Positions 9,607 through 23,499 of a DNA stretch of 64,000 nt are shown piece by piece. Positions within the stretch are counted from its first letter, which is position 1, and the number at the start of each line of letters is the position of its first letter. A program made the position numbers and the translations under genes. The DNA comes from Octopus sinensis (lineage: Eukaryota), in assembly GCF_006345805.1 (NCBI RefSeq), contig NC_042998.1, positions 63,736,001 through 63,800,000 on the forward strand, read 5' to 3'. Under the pieces are notes generated by a model. The model did not search any database. It saw only the letters and a list, made by a program, of their open reading frames with translations, and was not told where the DNA came from.

Positions 9607-11045
9607 ACTTAGATAAACTTAGATATGTTTCGACCAAAGATTGGTCCAGGCCATGTCTAACTTAATAGCACCACCTGATAGGATTATTTGAATCCTGTTT
9701 AAGTCAAATTTTGATTATGGTCCATTCAAGTAGTGAGTTTTTGTTGGGTGAGTTGTATCCAATTATGGGTGGCTTATTTGGTATTCCTTGAAGGAATCTA
9801 TCCAGACTCCGTTTAAAGTTGATGGGATCCTTTTCCTCTTTGATATCTTTCGGGACAATGTTAAATAGAGCAGAGCCTGTTGAGGAAAAGAAATTATGTT
9901 GCAGTGTACATGTATGCTGTGATCTTGAATTGGGCAGGGGACGTATGGCCCGTGGTTCCAGTCTTGGATGAACCTTGAAGCTAATGTTCAGGTCGTTTGG
10001 GCAAAGTTGGCGGTACATTCTCCACAACGTACAAATGATGTACCGCTCACGGCGACGCTGGAGGGAGTAGAGTTTCAAGGCTTTAAGGCGATCCCAATAA
10101 TCGAGAGCAGCCACGCCTTCAATTCGTTTAGTGAGTGCCCTCTGGGGGTGATTCAATCCTCGAGATGTTTTGACTTGTATGGTGAGACCACAGTGGGCAG
10201 CAGTTTTCGAGGTGTGGACGTACAAAGGAGGCGAAAAGTGGTATGATGGCACCTTGTTCTTTGGACCGGAAAGTTCTTAAGATCCAGGAACTCATCCTAC
10301 GAGCTATATCGACCTTCTTGTTGATGTGTGCACTCCAACTGAGATCGTCATCAACAATTACACCCAGGTCTCTGATATTGTTAGAGGCTGTGAGCGGTTC
10401 CCCTGAAGGAAGAGAGTATGGCTGTTTTAGTGAGGAATTTCTTCCAAAATGCATCAGCTCAAATTTTCCCTCGTTCAGTTGCATTTTGTTTCTGTCTGCC
10501 CATTGACTCACAGCATATAGATCAGACTGGAGTTGTGTTCGGTCTGCTTCTTCATTGACGATTTGCTGGAGCTTAGTGTCATCAGCAAATATTTTCACTT
10601 TGCAGTAATGTACGACACTGGAAATGTCGTTTATGTAAATTATGAAGAGTAGCGGACCAAGAGAGTCCCCAGGGGGACACCGCTGGTGACTTTTGCTGGG
10701 CTTGAGTGGAATCCATCAACTACAACATGCTATTCGCCAGGAAATACTTAAACCAGTGTAGAAGTTTTCCACGGATTCCAGCATTTGCCAATTTTGAGAG
10801 TAGGATATTATGTTCTACCATGTCGAATGCTTTACTGGAGTCAAGATATATGACATCAGAGTTCGAATCTATTCCCAAGGCTTTGGGTACATCTTCAATG
10901 TGGTGTAAGAGCTGTGTTAGACAGTCCCTGCCACAGCGAAAGCCATGCTGATTTGCATTTAGAAGTTTGTGGGTCTTCAGGAAGTCAGCTATCCTTGATC
11001 GTAACACTCTTTCAAACAGTTTAATGATGTGGGAGGTGAGTGAGA
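9607..11045 (-). mobile_element. CR1-group LINE, RT and 3' end, frameshifted
   Basis: ISLTSHIIKLFE, NQHGFR, YLDSSKAFD, KIFADDTKL, RDLGVIVD, YSLQRRRERY; short tandem tail (ATCTAAGTTT); (TA)n on both sides. Confidence 0.92.
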
Positions 11046-11086
11046 TATATATATATTTTTATACATATATATGTACATGTATATAT

Positions 11087-11690
11087 ATAAAACAGGACAC
11101 GACTCGTCAACTAGTCCTTCATTGCGAGAGAATTAAAATAAAATTGCCTCGCATAGGGGAAAAAACAGACAAGAAAAACATGTGACAAAATCAGGACGTA
11201 AAAACGATACAAATACAAAATAAAAAGCCTTTTCATTTTGTTTTTCTCGTTTGTTTTCTTGTCTTTTGATTTCTCGTATTGTATTTTCTTTTTATTTCTC
11301 GTTTTGTATTTTCTTGTACGTGTATCTTTATCTTGTATTTTATTTTGCATTTGTATCGTTTTTACGTCCTGTTTTTGTCGCATGTTTTTCTTGTCTGTTT
11401 TTGCCCCTATGCGAGGCAATTTTATTTTAATTCTCTCGCAATGAAGGACTAGTTGACGAGTCGTGTCCTGTTTTATCCTTCGAAACACGCTTGAGTTAGC
11501 TAGAGACAGCTGATGAACTGGGGATTTTTCCTGTGTGGTTTCTCCTGTACCTTGTTTTTCTGTTGTAAAAAATAATGTTTTTCCCGTTTCCGTTTCGTCT
11601 GTTTTTTGTTGTAAAAATATGGCTTGTCCGATTTCGTTTTTCGTTGAGTTCTACGTCTAGTTGCAGTGTCCTGTACTCACGTATATATAA
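11087..11690 (+). mobile_element. PLE pLTR-like element with 5' inverted duplication
   Basis: 11087-11225 is the reverse complement of ~11338-11475; TA-rich flanks; CTGATGA and GAAAC remnants. Confidence 0.6.
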
Positions 11691-11770
11691 TTATATATGC
11701 ATGTATATATACATGTAGATGTAGGTACGTACATATATGTTTGTATGCATGCATATATTTTATTTATTAC

Positions 11771-11870
<100 letters not shown>

Positions 11871-11940
11871 TTTAATTACGATTCATTTGATTGAGGTACT
11901 GAAATTGAGGCACCTTGCCGGATCGTTATACTCCCAGCAC

Positions 11941-11975
<35 letters not shown>

Positions 11976-11978
<3 letters not shown>

Positions 11979-13285
11979 CTGGGTCTTAAAACAGCTACTA
12001 AATGGCTCAAATGCGGATGTTACATATCTCGAATTTGCAAAAGCCTTTGATAAAGTCGACCATGGTATGATCTGTCACAAACTACGTGGTCTCGGCATAG
12101 GCGGAAAACTTGGAGAGTGGCTGCACGACTTTCTAAAAGACAGAAGACAGGCAGTTGTGAGCAATGGAGCCACTTCCAAGGAAACACAAATAACAAGCGG
12201 TGTTCCACAGGGCACTGTCTTGGGGCCACTGATGTTCATAGTGGCCCTTTTAGACATGCCTTCAGTAGCTACGATGGCCACCCTTGCTAGCTATGCAGAT
12301 GACACAAAAGTCTCCCACACAATACAAAACCCTGAACATATTGCACATCTGCAACAGGAGTTGGATAAAATATACAGGTGGGCGGAGGGCAACAACATGC
12401 AGTTTAATGCAGGTAAGTTCCAGGCCCTGCGCTACCGGCACACAAAAGTAAACGACGTGCAGACTGGATACACTGGCCCAGGAAGAATTGCAATCCCTGA
12501 GTTAAAATCAGTGCGTGACCTAGGCATTGACATGTGCAATGATGCATCTTTCCAAGTGCATATTACTAATCTGGTGATAAAATGCAGACGGCTAGCTGGA
12601 TGGATTCTCCGAACTTTCAGAACAAGAGAGAAGGAGGCACTGATGGTCCTCTGGAAAACATTCGTCCTCAGCCGCTTGGACTACTGCTCCCAACTATGGT
12701 CACCACACAATATAAAACTAACAGCAGAACTCGAAGCAATTCAGAAAAGCTACACAAAGAAGATCGTCTCAATGCAAAATATCAGCTACTGGGAAAGACT
12801 GAAAGTATTAAACCTCTTCTCCCTAGAGCGAAGGCGGGAGAGATATGTGGTGATATACATCTGGAAAATCCTGGAGGGTCTTGTCCCAAACTTTGGCATT
12901 CAAATTTACCCCAACCACAGAACGGGGCGCCACTGCATGGTGCCAAAGATTCAAACATCAGCATCAAAATACAGGACCAGATACTGCAACAGCTTGGGTT
13001 TCAGAGAACCACAGCTCTTTAACATCCTCCCTAAATGCCTGAGAGACTTGCATGGTGTGGATGTGGGTTTCTTTAAAACTAAACTGTATCTCTTCTTGTC
13101 GGGAGTCCCAGATGAACATATCTTACGACAGGAGACGCAGATGCGGGCAGCAGCATCGAACTCCCTTGTTGATCAAGTGTCACGTATCAGAGGTGGATTC
13201 ACATATTAGTGTAGCTCATTCAGCGGTGGTGCCCCAGCATGGCCGCGGCCTTCGGGCTAAAACATTTTTAAGGATTTAAGGATTT
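11976..13285 (+). mobile_element. CR1-group LINE, 5'-truncated, open RT frame to the stop at 13209
   Basis: YLEFAKAFDKVDH, SGVPQGTVLGP, SYADDTK, RDLGI, FSLERRRERY; tail ggtgccccagcatggccgc..(TTTAAGGA)2. Confidence 0.95.
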
Positions 13286-14219
13286 ATATATATACACAGA
13301 AGTGCAGAAATTGTGTTAAAATTTACTACAGTTGTCTCTGTAGAATTTTATCAACAAACTAGTAATTTTGAATTTCAATTTCTGTTCTTTTTATGCCTAC
13401 GCCAAACATGGAACTAACTCTCAGTTGGATTTATGGTGTATATTGCATTTGATAAATACATACATACATACATACATACATACATACATACCTGTTGTAA
13501 ACTCCCAACACATAATAACTCATTATTGTTTCATCTCGCCGTGAGCGCAAATTAATCTTACCTAATTAGCCTTGGCGTCGTATATTTATATACGTCTTAG
13601 AGAGTAATATGTGCAAAAGCATCACGTTATATATATATTTTTCCAGTTTTCCAGTTTGTGTCTATATACGTGTCAAATATTCTCACTCATTTATATGCTA
13701 CGATACTGTTTTAACCATTCATAAAATTGAGATCGTTGTATAATACATAAACATAGACAATTATGTTTATTTACATTATTCCTCAGTTACGGCTACTCAC
13801 ATTTTAAAGAGGAGCCATTACTTGACAAGCACAGTGATGCTGATTGGATGTGGGAGCGTTCCTATCCATTTCAAGCTAAGCATTTTCTTGTAAATTGATA
13901 TTATATGCACTTACAAATCAGTACCGTAAGCTGTAAGGGTCACTTTCAATGTGAGTGTGTTAGATAGGTAGCTAGAAAACAATCGCACATCTTGTAGTCA
14001 CATGTATTCTTATTATGTTATTGGTTGTTTCAAAGCATATTCTTTGCATCGTTATTTAGATAATGATTTCCCAAATATTCAACTGTGTCAAGCATCTAGT
14101 GCAACAACTACTTACGATATTTGAGTCAATGTCTCACCTTATAACTCAGCAATGTTTTAAGTGTTTATATACTTCAAATATCTATTTATCTGCACATGTA
14201 TATGTATATACGTATATAT

Positions 14220-14279
<60 letters not shown>

Positions 14280-15535
14280 GATACACTTTAGAAATAGTGT
14301 TGCCTCCGAATCTATTACTTCGCATTAATTCAGCTTAAATTTCAGTCTCTGTGACGCTTCTGATGACTGCATTCTCACTGACCGCTGGCGGCTAGCAATT
14401 CATGTAAATTCTATTTAAAATGAATAATTTCTGAAGTTATATTGCTACCACTTTCTACTACTGTGAGAAATACCTCGTTGAGATATACTACATTATTGTT
14501 AATGATATGTCATTAATTGAGCGTTTCAAATTCTTCTGTATTTTGTTATATCGACTGTAGACTATTTTTTATATAAAAAGATATCTGTTCACATCTGAAC
14601 AGTGTTAGACTATTAGTTTTCGTTATCTACGGTCTCAGTGCTATTTTTTAACGTGTAACCTTTTATCAGTGTTCTTTCCACATGTCTAATCTTAAATGCA
14701 ATCTTAATTACATTAACCGAAAGAAACTGCATTATCATCTATATTCCTATATATTATGCAATCAAGCATACAATTCTCTTTAAATATTTGTGTAAACAAG
14801 TGATCCTTAGTTAAATTTGTATGGTAATTTCCAAAGAAGGTGAGGAATTATATTGGATGGCTTGTCCATATTTTCATCGACAGAAAACAGTTTTGGAAAA
14901 TGATGCTTAAATATAAGTACTGTTGCTGGTTTAAGGGGTTTCATTCTTCTGAGTAACCAAAACCTCTCCATAATAGTCCAAGCCCTCATAGCATTCCTAA
15001 CGCCCGGTAATGATACATTTCAATTTGTGACTCTCCTGTATGCTCACATGCACTTGGCTAAAAGGCAGGCTAAGAGCAGCTTAAGACAGAGCTGGAAAAG
15101 TATTGCAAAAATCATCACAAAATATCACGATATATATATCGTATAATACTATTTCAGTATTTCAGTAGCATAAACTGAGTTTATTACAACCCTGCATGCA
15201 TTCTACACTATCACCGAAGATATAAATAGTTCGCTGTATATCCAGGTATATGTCATTAACAAGGTAAATCGAGGCCGATAATTTATCTGGCATTCCAATG
15301 AGTTACCACTGATACGAACCAATTGCTAAATTTCTATTACCGCAACATGCATATGTGTAACTTTCTCGCAGAAAACATACACATCAGGTCACTCAAAGGT
15401 GTTTATCCGTTAGGAAGGTACAAGGGTGGCTATTATATATCGTATTGAGCAAGATGATTCATATTACTATCGTTTTCACAGTTCCGATCACATTTCCCTT
15501 TGAACACAATGTGTGTGTGTCTGTGCGTCTCCCTT

Positions 15536-15573
<38 letters not shown>

Positions 15574-16179
15574 TAAACCGGTTAGATTAGCAAGTTTCAC
15601 CCAACTTCGTAACTTTCATTTACATACAGTTCATCTTCAAAGATAATTCTGTATATGATGTAAGCTTAAACCTCTAATGTCAATGTCTGCTAATGAAGAA
15701 GAGAGGCATTAAATTATATTGCAACATCTAATGTTTTGCCGAGTTAAATATCACATCATCTAATATTTATTTTCATTTATATAACTTACATACGAGTGTA
15801 AATCAAATAAAAAAAATCAACTCAGTTAAATGATAACGAAAAACAATAAAGATATCAAATACACAAGTAATGAAAAATGTAAAATAAATACTTTTATTTC
15901 GAATACTAACAGCTTAGTAATATCAGTTCATCATGATATTAAATATCTCACGTAAAATATGAAATAAACGTATTCATTAGCGGTTTATACTAATATATCT
16001 TTTACTTAGAAGATATACAAGTATATAAATTACTTTGAAGTGAAAACAGTGCATATGACCTTTGATAGGGCTTCGGAAATTAGTATTAAAAAGGTGAAGG
16101 AGAAACGTAATGTTACATCGGAGTCTTCGCTCGAATGCTTCCAACGGAATAAACTCTGCTAAATGCATCTAGGATGACT

Positions 16180-16295
16180 AGGTTCCGGGTTCAGTCCCAC
16201 TGCGTGGTACCTTGTGCACTATAGCTTCGGGCCGACCAAAGCCTTGTGAGTGGTTTCGGTAGACGGAAACTGAAAGAAACCCCTCATATCTATCC

Positions 16296-16363
<68 letters not shown>

Positions 16364-16364
16364 G

Positions 16365-16429
<65 letters not shown>

Positions 16430-16436
16430 ATGTATA

Positions 16437-16481
<45 letters not shown>

Positions 16482-16492
16482 TATATATATAG

Positions 16493-16535
<43 letters not shown>

Positions 16536-16697
16536 TGTGTCTGTGCTGGTTCACCCAACGTCGCTTGACAACCGATGCTGGTGTGTTTACCTTCCCATAA
16601 CTTATCGTTTCGGCAAAAGGGACCGATAGAATAAGTACTAGGCTCACAGAAAATAAATCCTGGGGTCGCTTTGCTCAACTGAAACAATTAAAAGAGT
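16180..16697 (+). mobile_element. SINE family A, bipartite, with internal (ATCT)n(TA)n(TG)n
   Basis: 5' part ggttcagtcccactgcgtgg..; 3' part cgcttgacaaccgatgctggtgtgtttac..gaataagtactagg. Confidence 0.8.
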
Positions 16698-16899
16698 CTG
16701 ACAGGCGATGGAGTTAAACAAGGCGAAAGATTAAACGTAGGCAATTTGAACTCAGAACTTAACGCGTGCCATCTACACTGACATGCACTCAGTTCCACCA
16801 CTGTACCGACCTAGCTCTGATTTGAATAAATTGTAAGAAAGGATTAAATTCAAAATCGACCTCGGTGAGACTTTCCCTTGGAGGAGAGATGGATGCTAC

Positions 16900-17110
16900 T
16901 AATATTTTTGCAGAAGGCAAGCAATTTCAGGAGGGTGTGAGATAAATCGATTACATCGACCCCATTTTTCAACTGGTACTTCTTTTGCATTTTTATCTAA
17001 CCAGAGTGGATGAAAAGTAAAGACGACCTCGTCGGAATTTCATCTGAGAAGGTAAAGACGAACGAAACGCCATGAAGCATTTAGTCCGGCGTGCAAACGA
17101 CTCTGCCTCT
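16900..17110 (-). mobile_element. SINE family B
   Basis: Reverse-complement similarity to 60593-60800 (ctggtact..gatgaaaagtaaagacgacctcgtcggaattt). Confidence 0.7.
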
Positions 17111-17130
17111 TTAGAGTTGGAACTAATATT

Positions 17131-17262
17131 CTTTTCTATCTTGGCACAAGGCCCGAAATTTTTTGGGAGGCGAGTTAGTCGATTAGATCTACCCCAGTAT
17201 ACAACTGGTACTTAATTTATCGACCCCGAAAAGATGAAAGATAAAGTCGACCTGGGCGGAAA
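17131..17262 (-). mobile_element. 5'-truncated SINE family B with 18-bp TSD
   Basis: agagttggaactaatatt at 17113-17130 and 17263-17280. Confidence 0.85.
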
Positions 17263-17740
17263 AGAGTTGGAACTAATATTGCCAGGCATTCTGCCTCATG
17301 TTTAAACAATTGTATCAGATATAGTTTATCTGCTCAAATTATATCTGGTTATTTGTTGCCTTCTTCAGATGCAATATTGTGCACCATTTAAATGTTTGTG
17401 TGTATGTGTGTACGTACAAATTTTAATACCTCGTAGTATTTTTCAAATACAATACTATGATGCAATTGTGAAACATTTAATGTTTCCTTAACACAACGTT
17501 GCTAAAAGTGAATGGTAGAAAAACCAACAACGTTGACTATTTTGCAATGGAAGCTTATTTAATCCCATATGTATATTTGTCAATATTAGGGTTGACATAG
17601 TAAACATGCAATACATGTAATTCATATTTCTGGGAGTGAAAATATTTCCACATAAAGCCTCCATTGAATTTAATATAGTATTTGAAAAATGCCACCGATA
17701 TCTATAATATAGGAATTAAATGTACAATAGTACCTAAGTA

Positions 17741-18438
17741 TATAATGGTTGTATACTGTCAATCTAACAAGAACGTGGCAGTAGGGGGTACACCACCGTT
17801 ATATAGCCCTAGGAGGCATCGAACTCCTCCTGACAGCTTCGACACATTTTATCCTGTGTCCTTATATACACATACGAAGGGGAGACAAACACCCCCAACT
17901 GCCGGAACTGCATCTAGGGACACCGTGTTTCAGGATCATTGTCCTTCATCGGCCTAGAGTAGCAGACACCGGTCAGCTGGCGATGTCTGTCTCGACTTCG
18001 TATCTGTATATATCTATAGTCAGTGAAGTCTATTCACTGATTATCAAAATAAGAAATATTGAGTTTCTAAATCTCTCGTAGAGAGGTGTACGGTGGTGGA
18101 GCGATATAATGGTTGTATACTGTCAATCTAACAAGAACGTGACAGTAGGGGGTACACCACCGTTATATAGCCCTAGGAGGCATCGAACGCCTGAAACATA
18201 GTGTCCCTAGATGCAGTTCCGGCAGTTGGGGGTGTTTGTCTCCCCTTCGTATGTGTATATAAGGACACAGGATAAAATGTGTCGAAGCTGTCAGGAGGCG
18301 TTCGATGCCTCCTAGGGCTATATAACGGTGGTGTACCCCCTACTGTCACGTTCTTGTTAGATTGACAGTATACAACCATTATATCGCTCCACCACCGTAC
18401 ACCTCTCTACGAGAGATTTAGAAACTCAATATTTATAA
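17741..18438. mobile_element. Hammerhead-bearing non-coding retroelement (364 bp unit, partial tandem plus inversion, 10-bp TSD)
   Basis: Direct repeat at 17740/18104; inverted arms 18054-18192 and 18296-18434; TSD tacctaagta at 17731-17740 and 18439-18448. Confidence 0.85.
17913..17958 (-). ncRNA. Type I hammerhead ribozyme motif (U4C variant)
   Basis: Minus strand: tctagg-CCGATGA-agga-caatga-tcct-GAAA-cac-g-gtg-TC-cctaga; stems I, II and III all pair. Confidence 0.8.
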
Positions 18439-18724
18439 TACCTAAGTAATTTCATGAAAAATACTCCTCTGAGTTATACCGGCAAAGTTTATTTCAGCGT
18501 AAGATTTTGACCCGAGGCTGAAAACATATTAGCTTTTGATATTTATCATAAACTACTTGAGGTAGCTATTCCTCAATTTATTTGTATTCACATAAAATTC
18601 ATAACAAAATATATGTATTGTGTTTGGAAAGTGAATTTTATTACTTAAATACGAAGAAAATGCACACAAAGTTACAGAGTGCATAAGTACAGAATGTTCA
18701 CTGCATTTATTAGCAGCAACAATG

Positions 18725-18825
<101 letters not shown>

Positions 18826-18992
18826 GGATCTATAGATAGATATAGATATAGGTATAGTCATAGATATATATAATTATATATATCTGAATGCGTGATAGGT
18901 GAACCGCGAGATAGCGAGCGATTACTGTATATATATATATATATATTATATATATATATATATCTATCTATCTATCTATATATCTATCTATA

Positions 18993-19039
<47 letters not shown>

Positions 19040-19460
19040 AAATTTGCTATAATACGCTCGTGTCTGCTCAGTGCCGTTTTGTGGAATAAAACACCTATTG
19101 AATCTATTCCTGCAAGTGAAATGGGACACCAGTATTATACACCTACCACAAATTTCAAACCATGATCGGTAAATGTAATACCATTTGGAATATACTCATT
19201 GTGATGTATCCTCGATTTTCTATAGCAGATTTCTGACAACAATTTGTCGATTTAAAGTGACGTTAGCAATAATTGCTTGTTGCAGATTGTCTAAGATAGC
19301 TGACAATTGCATACATTCCACAGATGCATCAGAATCAGATAATACGATGAAAATCTATTCAAACCTGCACCCAGATGTATTTCCTCATTCCAGACGGAGT
19401 TTCTTTTCACATACCTCATTCTATTCTGAGAGGAAATGAGAAATAAGGTGTGTGCATATC

Positions 19461-19548
<88 letters not shown>

Positions 19549-19722
19549 ACGTGTGTGTGCACGTGTGTGTATGTGTATGTGTACATGTAATACATATCAA
19601 TATATATGTATCATTGTGATTATACGAATACATTTGGTAAATACTTTCTTATCTCTCTGTCTGTTGTTTGTCTCTCGTCTATCAACCTACCTGTCTATCT
19701 ATCTAAGTGCGTGTGTTTGTGC

Positions 19723-19756
<34 letters not shown>

Positions 19757-20002
19757 ATATATATATATACTATATATATATATATATAAAACATTATTGG
19801 TGAATTGAAGAAATGGAGCTGAACGCATTTCTTCAATTCACCAATAATGTTTTAATTTCAATTATCCGCACCAACGCACGGTTGCAACGCCAGATGGTTG
19901 TACCTCCAACCGTGCTGTTTACTGCTGTGATTTTTGCTACTAAGGTATCGGTTAAACTTTTGATTATCTACTACAAGATTATTCATCTTTCTATTTCACA
20001 TA

Positions 20003-20051
<49 letters not shown>

Positions 20052-22039
20052 TGTATGTGCGTGTGTGAGTTTGTGTGTATGTGCAAAACCATGTATGTCG
20101 TTCCTATATGTATGCAAATATATATATACATGTGTGCGTGTCTGCATGCATAGTGAGAGAGGCAGATAGTGAGATAAAGAGATATATACTTATATATAGA
20201 TGTGTATCTATGCACCTATGCGGTGTTTGTGTACGACTAGTACACTAGGCTAGTAAGCGTAGAACTACTTTGATTATCTTTCTGTGTATGTGTTTCTTAG
20301 TTTCAAAGTGTTCTTCATTTTATAGATAAGCATTCTTTAAAACTCTGTTTCGAAATAATATTTTCTATAATATTTATATTCGTCAGGTAAAAAAAAAAAT
20401 TATTGTTAGAAATTAAAAATTTAAATTACAAGCGAAATAGATATAAATATATAGCAAACACCAATCGATAGAGATATCGAAAAAAAATGCAGGATATCAA
20501 AAATAGAATAATATTCTGTTTTTTAATTTCTTTCGTTTCAGAGTAAAATACACATATATTTCGAAATCTATTCAAAATATTATTACTAGAATAAATTAAA
20601 TACAAAATCATATATATATATATAACTATTAACCATTAGTATAACAAAATTTCAAATCGTGTTTCAATCACCACACCTGTCAGTCTATAGAAAATATTTT
20701 GGAATTAATGAGCATAGAAATTAGCTCCGGGAGCTTCAAGTAACGTATGTGATTGTACTTCTTAAATAGTTGCAGCACAATAAAGTTAATATCAAAATAA
20801 AAATTAAAAAAAAACGAATAATTAAATAAAGAAAGAAAAAAATTCTAACAAAACTACTGACTCTGCTATTAAAATATCTTGACGGGACACAGCGTAATGA
20901 TGTTTGCTTCCGGGCATAAAGAGTGGCTGAGCTAATGTTGCCATGTTCAATGTAATGTTACAGAATCTGTAATGTTTTCTGTGCGTGTGTGTGTATGTAT
21001 AGTGAGCGGTTTTTACATGTTTCCTTCCAAATTATAGACACCCCATGCTGGGGCATATACATATTACATAACACATATACATCTGTTTTGTAAAATTATA
21101 TATGCAGATGCATTTTGTTTTACCTTTGTTTGGTTTAATGTTTCAACGCACATACAAATATTTCTGAACATATAATATGTATGTATGTAAATATGTATGT
21201 ACGTATGTATATGTATTATATATGTATCTATCTATCAACCTATATATATATGCGTGTGTGTGCGCATGTGCGTATGTGTGTATGTATGTGTGTATATATA
21301 CACTCACACCCACACCCACACACATATATAAACATACAGACACACATACATATATACATAATATACATAAGTATGCATGCTACTACTACTACTACTACTA
21401 CCACTACCACTGTTGCTGCTGCTGCTGCTGCTGATGATGATGATGATGTTGACGATGTTGACGATGATGTTACGACCACTAACTGTGCTTTTTGCCAACA
21501 GAGTATAATTTGAATCTTTGAATGCAATTTGACAATAATCTACTCCATCTTTATATTTACTTTTTTGCCTAAATATTATTTTTATTGCTCATCTGCATTA
21601 GCATCTCATGAACGATAAATTGCTGATCTGTTCGTTGGATTTGGTGTTTGTATCTCAAAATGTGTGTCTATGGGTGTGTTTGCTTGTGCATATGTGCTCG
21701 TGTATATGTGACTGCTTGTGTATATGTGACTGCATATGTTTAAATGTGCATGAACGTATTTCTTTGTGCGTGTGTAAAGTTGTGCTTATGCCTGTTTGGA
21801 CCAATTTCTTTCCCTCTTATCGTCTCTAAGTATGTATGTATCTAGATATGTGTGAGCAAAGTAAATTGCATGAATGCATCTTTCCGCGTACGCCAATCCA
21901 TTTGATATGCTTGGTTGGTTATACATCTGTATGTATGTCAACATGTCTAAGTGTTTTGAAAACGCGAATGCGTATTTGTGCGCATTCATACAGAGTATGC
22001 ATATGTGCACGTGTGAGTCTGTGTGTCAGACTTTTGTAA

Positions 22040-22700
22040 TAGCTTTACCAGACACTCTTGTAATAGCTCTACTGGACACTCTCATCTGATTTCCTATATA
22101 TTTCCCCAATGACCCAAGAATAGTTAGCAATAACTTCGCCTTCGTTTTCCATAGATGTACATATATTTCATACTTAAGAAGATTGTATTCATCAAGTTCT
22201 TCGACTTCTTGAATATTCGTGGGTCAAAGGGACACACAACATCAATTATAAAGCACAGGTTGTATATCTTGACCATTGCAACTGTGTCCAGCCTGTTATA
22301 CTCTACCACCTGATCTGTTTGGATTGGGAAATCCAAGAGTATTTAGCAAGTCTCTGACTCCGCCACTCTCAGTGCTTTTTGATCATACAACGTCTTGCTT
22401 CTCTGTTGCCCCAACTCTTCGCTCAACTTCCAGTGTAGTACTTTCGCTACCTCATCGTGATGCCACAGCTTGCTTATTCCAAAGGTTGACCATCTTATTC
22501 GTGACCAAAGCTTGGTCTTGCGCTTCCAATACAGTCGTTTCAGTCTCTTTTTTCAGTGTTCATTTCTTCAGCCAATCCCACCTATGTTTTCCAGCAACTC
22601 CAGTTATGTTTACATGGAACTGATTGAGAAGTCCCTTGTTGCGTAATGCTTCGTATTGTCGTTTTTGTACTTGTCTTGTTTTTCTTTTCTGTTTTCTCTG
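22040..22700 (-). mobile_element. R4/Dong LINE fragment, degenerate
   Basis: LKKETETTVLEAQDQAL, HHDEVAKVLHWKL, DFPIQTD..CFIIDVVCPFDPRI. Confidence 0.75.
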
Positions 22701-23499
22701 CTTTCGTTTGGAGGATAAAACTGATCACATTGACCCCAATGCTGAATTTGTATTTATGTTACCGTACCCGAAACGATAAATACAATCTCGATCTTGGCAG
22801 AGTGTAAACTCTGCTGAATTCTGGCGTGCTAACCATTCTGCTATCTCACTATCTCTCCACCTTCCTCGAATTCCTATTAAACACTCGAATCATGAACTAC
22901 TTCGAATGTGAAATATTCGTTTGTCCACACCAAAGCATGAAGTTTAATAGGAAAAATATTAGTTCATTTTAAGAACTAAGCAACTAAAATATATTTATCT
23001 CAATTCCATATTAAACTATAGCAATAGTGTAACGACAAATACGAAATTATATGCTGCACAATTGGGTTATATCTCACAATTTCCAATTTATTGAGTTTTA
23101 ACTATATTATTTACAACCCATCTTTTCAAGCTTAAATACTCTCAGGCAAACTATCGTTCGATGTAAAGTTTAAACGACAACTTGTGTTAAGAAGTAATGC
23201 TTGAAGTTTGGGACGAATATGATATAAAATCGAAATAACAAAATTATAAACTATTAATAAAAGAGAGATATTAAATTAGGGGAGACATTATTTCACATCG
23301 TAGAATATTTGTAGAGTTGGCGACTTGTATGTATGACATGCTAATACGTACATACATATATATATATGTGCGTGCGTGTGTGTGTACGTATCTATGTATA
23401 TATTTGTGCGTGTGTGTGGGTGTATATATATATAACCATATACGTATGTATGTATATACGAACACATACACACACACACACACGCATACACACATACAC

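Follow-up and report, generated by a model that had tools for sequence, protein, structure and literature searches.

The window analysed here is a stretch of 64,000 nucleotides from Octopus sinensis (assembly GCF_006345805.1, contig NC_042998.1, positions 63,736,001 to 63,800,000 of the forward strand), and positions are counted from its first letter. It carries an insertion built from a non-coding 364-bp unit with a hammerhead motif, a member of a repeat family referred to here as family A. Other copies of the family harbour a 1.7-kb coding element, referred to as element B, at a site that is unoccupied in the window copy. We consider it probable that the window holds a family A insertion which was copied in trans, likely by the reverse transcriptase (RT) and endonuclease (EN) of a Penelope-like element (PLE), and that the family elsewhere hosts B, for which it is likely a repeatedly used target.

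The insertion and family A

Repeat detection and mapping on the unit, which is numbered u1 to u364 along the minus strand starting at 18104, placed 1.24 copies in the insertion (Table 1). A direct repeat (17740-17828 and 18104-18192) showed a spacing of 364 and an identity of 98%, and inverted matches paired 17740-17934 with 18190-18384 and 18049-18192 with 18296-18439. The two arms are joined 5′ to 5′ (head-to-head) inside a 10-bp target-site duplication (TSD), which matches at 13 of 14 positions if extended. The plus-strand arm shows four differences from the long arm, opens with half a ribozyme and closes with a tail of the class termed E56. The unit has a GC content of 45.3%, its longest stop-to-stop frames are below 100 aa, and the whole unit is predicted to fold stably (minimum free energy -143.4, z -7.75; none of 100 shuffles was equally stable). 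The initial annotation of the locus had described about 1.2 copies of a 364-bp unit, a 245-bp inverted block, a 10-bp TSD and a non-coding, non-autonomous element with a hammerhead motif and PLE-type insertion anatomy, and these descriptions were confirmed. Its proposal of a multimeric or circular template also stood, on account of family A arms longer than 364 nt. The basis given for it, an inverted block reading across the unit junction, did not: the 51 nt of the inverted arm past this 'junction' are an ordinary PLE tail.

The searches covered 2.72 Gb of genome. Family A gave 2253 first-look candidates, 40 of which were scored, many at 93-100% identity, and three family-A motifs had 122, 326 and 494 exact genomic matches with 0 for the controls; the family comprises hundreds of young, dispersed copies. 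The first 100 of the 326 motif matches were used as an unbiased set and yielded 76 distinct insertions with 133 arms. The 3′ ends of these arms lay at E1 (60), at E56 (53), at the junction with B (5) or at other positions (15), E1 and E56 being fixed 3′ ends separated by 56 nt. Both ends could be classed in 35 of 51 head-to-head pairs, and 34 of these 35 combined E1 with E56 (P about 1e-9). A second, overlapping set of 86 loci showed the same combination in 36 of 37 pairs, and AT repeats flanked 109 of its 125 classed ends. TSDs outside pure AT tracts measured 9-14 bp (loci L022, L039, L040, L045, L058, L059, L243 and L252 among them). Arms exceeded one unit (364 nt) in 43 of 133 cases and reached 902 nt, which means either multimeric or circular templates or jumping of the RT. 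In the accessible parts of two published accounts, the PLE tail is the interval that separates two internal RT starts, and both strands are nicked in AT-rich DNA (PMC11167929); PLE insertions are described as having one arm inverted and truncated, and a tail on one of their ends (PMC8557442). Family A insertions carry the hallmarks of PLEs, namely (AT)n targets, head-to-head arms and two fixed 3′ ends. Because the hammerhead unit occurs together with these hallmarks, family A is classed from its sequence as a non-LTR retrozyme, with self-cleavage predicted.

The hammerhead motif is of the minimal type I, with a stem I of 5 bp, a stem II of 4 bp with a 6-nt loop and a near-palindromic stem III. 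Its core at u153 reads CCGAUGA (17952-17946), a U4C variant, and cleavage is predicted after the GUC at 17919, i.e. after u186. The 38-nt motif had 122 exact genomic copies and its reversed control none, and it is therefore not a chance occurrence. An Rfam check, as proposed in the initial annotation, gave no hammerhead match even at E<=5; the scan of 16500-19500 returned 13 matches, all to other entries. That annotation had reported a 'fully paired' type-I fold with a 1-nt loop III. The motif, the GUC site and the core were found as described; a 1-nt loop III is impossible in a monomer, however, and full pairing therefore fits a dimer only, for which the two stem-III strands are predicted to pair at -9.9 kcal/mol. 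Of the ribozyme, only the 3′ half lies in the inverted arm, and the complete motif is in the long arm. The window copy has this one complete motif, and so falls short of the two-unit arrangement called 'active' in a recent preprint (bioRxiv 10.64898/2026.07.22.740005); L009, with two exact hammerhead motifs 364 apart, has that arrangement.

In homologous units of related families, the motif occupied the equivalent position; its stem letters differed, its stem-III palindromes were perfect, and its core was canonical or carried a U3-A8 swap. Since the search pattern demanded pairing, the independent evidence in these families is the position of the motif within related units. The U3-A8 core is reported to be active, and a palindromic stem III to be a mark of dimer cleavage (PMC3088659, accessible part). 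Further hammerhead-like motifs with a palindromic stem III, several of them U3-A8, were encountered by chance in the flanks of other loci (L012 947-988, L043 1002-1045, L055 2466-2509, L078 4388-4430, L094 3787-3830, L117 4601-4648 and L284 2369-2410), and for this reason the genome probably holds many more hammerhead families. Immediately left of the window insertion, an exact 18-bp direct repeat was observed at 17113-17130 and 17263-17280, 150 bp apart.

Table 1. Features of the family A insertion in the window
Feature	Position	Strand	Remark
Left target-site duplication, 10 bp	17731..17740	.	
Long arm, 453 nt = 1.24 retrozyme units	17740..18192	-	3′ end at first fixed end E1 (17740)
Predicted long imperfect hairpin, ribozyme at tip	17862..18014 (approximate ends)	-	
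Minimal type-I hammerhead motif, u148-u191	17914..17957	-	found by pattern
Empty target site of element B, u121-u134	17971..17984	-	32 nt before ribozyme core; putative transcription start
TATA-like stretch, about 25-30 nt before u121	18007..18018	-	putative promoter; other B hosts with similar spacing
56-nt tail between fixed 3′ ends E1 and E56	18049..18104	-	internal in long arm
Inverted 5′-truncated arm, 245 nt, u171 to u51	18190..18434	+	
Right target-site duplication	18439..18448	.	

Element B and its target site

Element B is 1.7 kb long, with a single open reading frame (ORF) of about 450 aa and a 3′ end consisting of AATAAA and a few A/T letters. Its N-terminal 250 aa are predicted to form two RRM-like domains (pLDDT 84); in Foldseek, this model matched tandem-RRM proteins best, at E about 1e-4 and with a low TM, and a CCHC knuckle follows the two domains. 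We take this layout to be the ORF1 architecture of a long interspersed nuclear element (LINE). The dN/dS of the ORF was 0.08-0.16 in four of six pairs, the two others being saturated. A Pfam search gave no family in B's own ORF, and no EN or RT followed a B-type ORF1 in 19 of 20 loci. At L140, an ORF1 of 52% identity is joined to ORF2-like sequence or a remnant of it, with a 3′ end similar to that of B, and this junction supports descent of B from a LINE, presumably of the L1/Tx1 group. The named homologues of B (8 of 10 looked up) came from Octopus species and Argonauta. The superfamily of B-related ORF1 sequences is large (13,000-16,000 first-look candidates), several of its members stand in tandem with leaders of their own (L321-L340), and most are without an ORF2 in view. 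An abundant repeat resembling short interspersed nuclear elements (SINEs), seen at L042 (about 1481), L055, L082, L089 and L329, ends in the same 20-odd bases as some B subfamilies and L140, which suggests that a common LINE may drive this repeat and B; we assume it to be the repeat named 'OK SINE'.

Seven of the 76 unbiased insertions contained B, and 1.7-kb inserts were present in 8 of 60 loci picked by motif. A search with B alone gave 283 candidates, of which 40 were scored, and together with a further search provided 28 arrays for examination. The arrays stack one to four copies, nearly all of them full-length; 22 end exactly at u121 and 25 touch the u121-134 site, including L097, L100 and L111, which start in it or touch it. 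Arrays at L116 and L289 lie elsewhere, and the placement of L290 is ambiguous. Upstream of B, family A sequence stops at u126-134, which leaves a duplication or leader of 7-14 nt that also occurs between stacked B copies. The 3′ junction of B in its multicopy target is thus fixed and accompanied by a duplication, as in target-specific elements of the Tx1 clade.

Diverged B loci (20 picked, 52-83% protein identity) lay in hammerhead units in 13 cases, in another TATA-bearing repeat in four and elsewhere in three. The core followed the AATAAA by 21-40 nt in 12 of the 13 hammerhead units, and at L135 B lies inside the ribozyme. Several hosts have a TATA-like stretch about 25-35 nt upstream of the B site, and the site may accordingly be read as a transcription start. 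The second host, seen at L122, L123, L129 and L131 (L129 4540-3850, minus strand), is an element of about 700 bp in which the B site is preceded by CCAAT- and TATA-like stretches and followed by 50-bp tandem repeats, with no hammerhead seen; at L122, B is present on both strands in a form resembling a two-arm insertion. A LINE adjacent to L082 meets it at u156, in the middle of ORF1, and has no connection with the B site.

Within family A, the identities of B copies and of their hosts were uncorrelated (Mantel r=0.08, p=0.12, n=19; L125 and the truncated L112 were left out). Thirteen pairs of B copies with at least 98% identity had hosts averaging 94%, and nine host pairs with at least 98% identity had B copies averaging 90%. 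From family to family, the two identities correspond on the whole, and at least one switch was observed (L133). As B and host identities are uncoupled, B is likely to insert repeatedly and to move on its own. Template switching would uncouple the two identities as well, and B might instead join A at the RNA level, with the RT jumping at the 5′ end of the A transcript (u121) to the 3′ end of B RNA and back to A through the shared leader of 7-14 nt. Such joining would be in keeping with a 3′ junction whose position is constant though the letters of the host target differ widely, with stacked copies that are nearly all full-length, and with a leader that often tracks the B subfamily and not the flanking A copy (L057). 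However, A sequence picks up without a seam on the upstream side of B, as would be expected of an insertion with a TSD; the leader at L085 has the host's own variant base, solo B copies occur outside A (L116, L121, L124 and L289), and few B-free arms start at u121. Joining at the RNA level is accordingly regarded as unlikely, and repeated insertion of B is preferred.

Locus L287 reads E1-A-B-B, a junction, a 5′-truncated B and A-E56, so that B is present in both inverted arms. Judged by this layout, it is a PLE-type two-arm insertion copied from an A+B RNA. At L104, L115 and L117, a stretch of A spanning the ribozyme is found on both sides of B.

A proposed mechanism and its weighing

Insertion of B into a PLE-mobilised retrozyme could proceed as follows. 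Tandem A would be transcribed, probably from a TATA-like promoter firing near u121, and dimerisation through the palindromic stem III would allow its ribozyme to cleave, giving monomers or circles. In AT-rich DNA, both strands would be nicked by a PLE enzyme, one cDNA would be made from each of the two internal starts E1 and E56, one per nicked strand, and the cDNAs would join at their 5′ ends. Element B would be a half-LINE (HAL1-like) of L1/Tx1 origin, transcribed from the promoter of A, the first 7-14 nt of the B RNA thus coming from A. The ORF2 of a LINE would prime B in trans at u121, and annealing of the B leader to the target would result in inserts of full length and in stacking. Composite A+B RNA produced by read-through would then likely be copied by the PLE machinery. 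Contigs of four sequencing runs guessed to be RNA cover the unit, and those of one of them (X1) cover all 30 bins of the A+B stretch; this coverage is blind to strand, ends and circles.

Several results weigh against this interpretation, and they concern the mobilising enzyme, the ribozyme and element B. With respect to the enzyme, 30 matches to the tail motif gave no autonomous PLE sharing the ends of A, and four PLE families (60 + 14 loci) share no convincing sequence or ends with the unit. The unit might then be the pseudo-long terminal repeat (pLTR) of a coding PLE still to be found and the copies its truncated ends, a case that the initial annotation had raised itself. All insertion hallmarks are indeed of the PLE type, and PLE ORFs are very abundant (three protein searches gave 10,000-23,000 first-look candidates per query), with four families examined. 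Nevertheless, when 90 loci were scanned for ORFs, with several kb of flanking sequence for 60, no RT or GIY-YIG ORF joined to the unit was revealed. Unit sequence lay upstream in 30 of 30 tail-motif matches, the period of 364 repeats for up to 902 nt with no ORF between units, and B was the only long insert between family-A units. The copies as a whole did not prove to be pLTR stubs of a coding PLE, and an undiscovered coding parent appears very improbable. Pieces of PLE ORFs near L012, L059, L081, L299, L305 and L311 were neighbours or interrupted hosts and unjoined to the unit. Two of the four PLE families contain hammerhead-like motifs themselves (L284, L285). Open frames of 766-1009 codons were observed in PLE copies at L273, L274, L275 and L282-L285; these copies belong to at least four families and are candidate sources of the mobilising enzyme.

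With respect to the ribozyme, the monomer hammerhead fold is predicted at -4.6 kcal/mol and a competing fold at -10.0, i.e. a misfold is favoured by 5.4 kcal/mol. The misfold is not due to U4C, because a natural copy with a canonical core is predicted to misfold likewise. The core of the window family is itself U4C, a change reported to lower activity considerably (PMC3088659), and nearly all family-A motifs share it, with the canonical CUGAUGA in four only. In the set of 76 insertions, 5′ ends were not enriched at the cleavage site (5 of 127 B-free arms at u184-189 versus about 2.8 expected, p=0.15); the motif-picked set, which is biased by selection on the ribozyme motif, was left out of this test. 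Most arms read straight through the predicted cleavage site. These results would also be expected if A was mobilised as described while its hammerhead is no more than a relic, weak or dead, the templates being uncut read-through tandem transcripts and not circles, which is compatible with the rest of the mechanism. On the other hand, related families have retained the stems as well as the palindromic stem III, with compensating letters, and U4C ribozymes, much slower in vitro, are described as sufficient for a viroid in vivo (PMC3088659, accessible part). In L014 and L250, both arms start at u187-188, the predicted cleavage site; the two loci look as if both cDNAs had run to the end of a cut RNA. 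A relic ribozyme is therefore considered a lesser possibility, if one to be taken seriously, and cleavage as a dimer is preferred.

With respect to element B, no intact ORF1, EN and RT in register was found as its partner among 40 loci with ORF1 relatives, and in the four diverged B loci (of 20) that target the different TATA-bearing repeat a ribozyme is not evident. Among 20 more distant ORF1 relatives, only one ended before a hammerhead, and targeting would therefore be limited to one lineage. B-free arms starting at u119-124 numbered 3 of 127, so that u121 is weakly supported as a transcription start. A more far-reaching reading, in which B is an ORF1-only LINE derivative specialised on hammerhead retrozymes that locates their transcription start by position and not by sequence and borrows their promoter, giving a ribozyme-flanked coding RNA of about 2 kb spread by a Penelope RT, is offered tentatively and is rather doubtful.

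If that reading were true, a protein-coding circular RNA replicon would have been built in an animal genome from three retroelement classes, and a non-coding ribozyme circle of 364 nt would have become an RNA of about 2 kb encoding an RNA-binding protein. If the targeting of B is positional, B and its hosts would offer a compact natural system for promoter-directed non-LTR insertion and would show how non-coding ribozyme RNAs gain a gene. B, a probable coding half-LINE, lies at a fixed distance before the hammerhead motifs of several families whose target letters differ, and the PLE route can carry it; one parasite of the genome is thus likely to live on a second and to move along with it. The near-strict rule of one end class per arm makes the completion of PLE insertion testable, with one RT start per nicked strand.

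Comparison with known systems

The window feature is a further member of the known retrozyme class, and by itself it extends this class to octopods. The suggestion of the initial annotation that such elements are undescribed in cephalopods held to the extent that no report of an octopus hammerhead or retrozyme was found in the literature, the class as such being published. The literature search found neither an octopus retrozyme nor an element that targets retrozymes; Repbase/Dfam, subscription papers and supplements lay outside this search and may list the families. A term search of a 2026 paper on O. vulgaris repeats (PMC13282606) gave 0 matches for hammerhead, ribozyme and retrozyme. The new layer is likely, judged from the sequences, to be a targeted and co-mobilised ORF1-only passenger on a retrozyme, for which no precedent was found in print.

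Non-LTR retrozymes have been reported in metazoans including mussel, with units of about 350-390 bp (Cervera & de la Pena 2020, PMC7229834). As far as the accessible part of that report describes them, they share with A the type-I hammerhead, a short non-coding tandem unit, a GC content below 50%, a TSD of more than 4 bp and a short stem III suited to dimer cleavage, and A lies within the limits for retrozymes (tandem unit of 150-450 bp, here 364; GC below 50%; TSD above 4 bp). In contrast to them, A occurs mostly as dispersed inserts of 1-2.5 units with inverted arms and not as long arrays, has a U4C core and hosts a nested coding element, the last of which is not seen for metazoan retrozymes in that part of the report. 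Retrozymes have been argued to be non-autonomous PLEs (Li, Clavereau & Pollet 2026, bioRxiv 10.64898/2026.07.22.740005), i.e. to use the same mobilising machinery as concluded for A. In the accessible part of the preprint, the argument is based on co-distribution and on a phylogeny of pLTRs, with 31 vertebrates, 3 insects and 1 anthozoan as the species covered, whereas the case for A is based on insertion anatomy, with two RT starts, one per arm, and a homologous pLTR was not found in four PLE families. Family A thus supports the claim that retrozymes ride on PLE enzymes and adds footprints at the level of mechanism.

Among EN+ PLEs, PAc/Poseidon (PMC11167929), Naiad and Chlamys, including the non-autonomous MRC1 (PMC8557442), resemble A in the accessible accounts in that two RT starts define the tail, which is on one end, and in having an inverted 5′-truncated arm and AT or (TA)n targets. 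Family A differs from them in its lack of an ORF and in a tail of 56 nt instead of 30-40. Element B resembles the half-L1 HAL1, which has been described for mammals (PMC5753468, accessible part), in its ORF1-only content, probable LINE origin, 3′ poly(A) signal and purifying selection on ORF1, and it resembles the target-specific LINEs of the Tx1 clade (PMC3747384, accessible part) in its fixed insertion site within a multicopy sequence. Unlike HAL1 and the Tx1-clade elements as described there, B has a retrozyme as its target, keeps its position despite differing target letters, forms stacked arrays, and is part of a composite that appears to be copied again by another class of retroelement.
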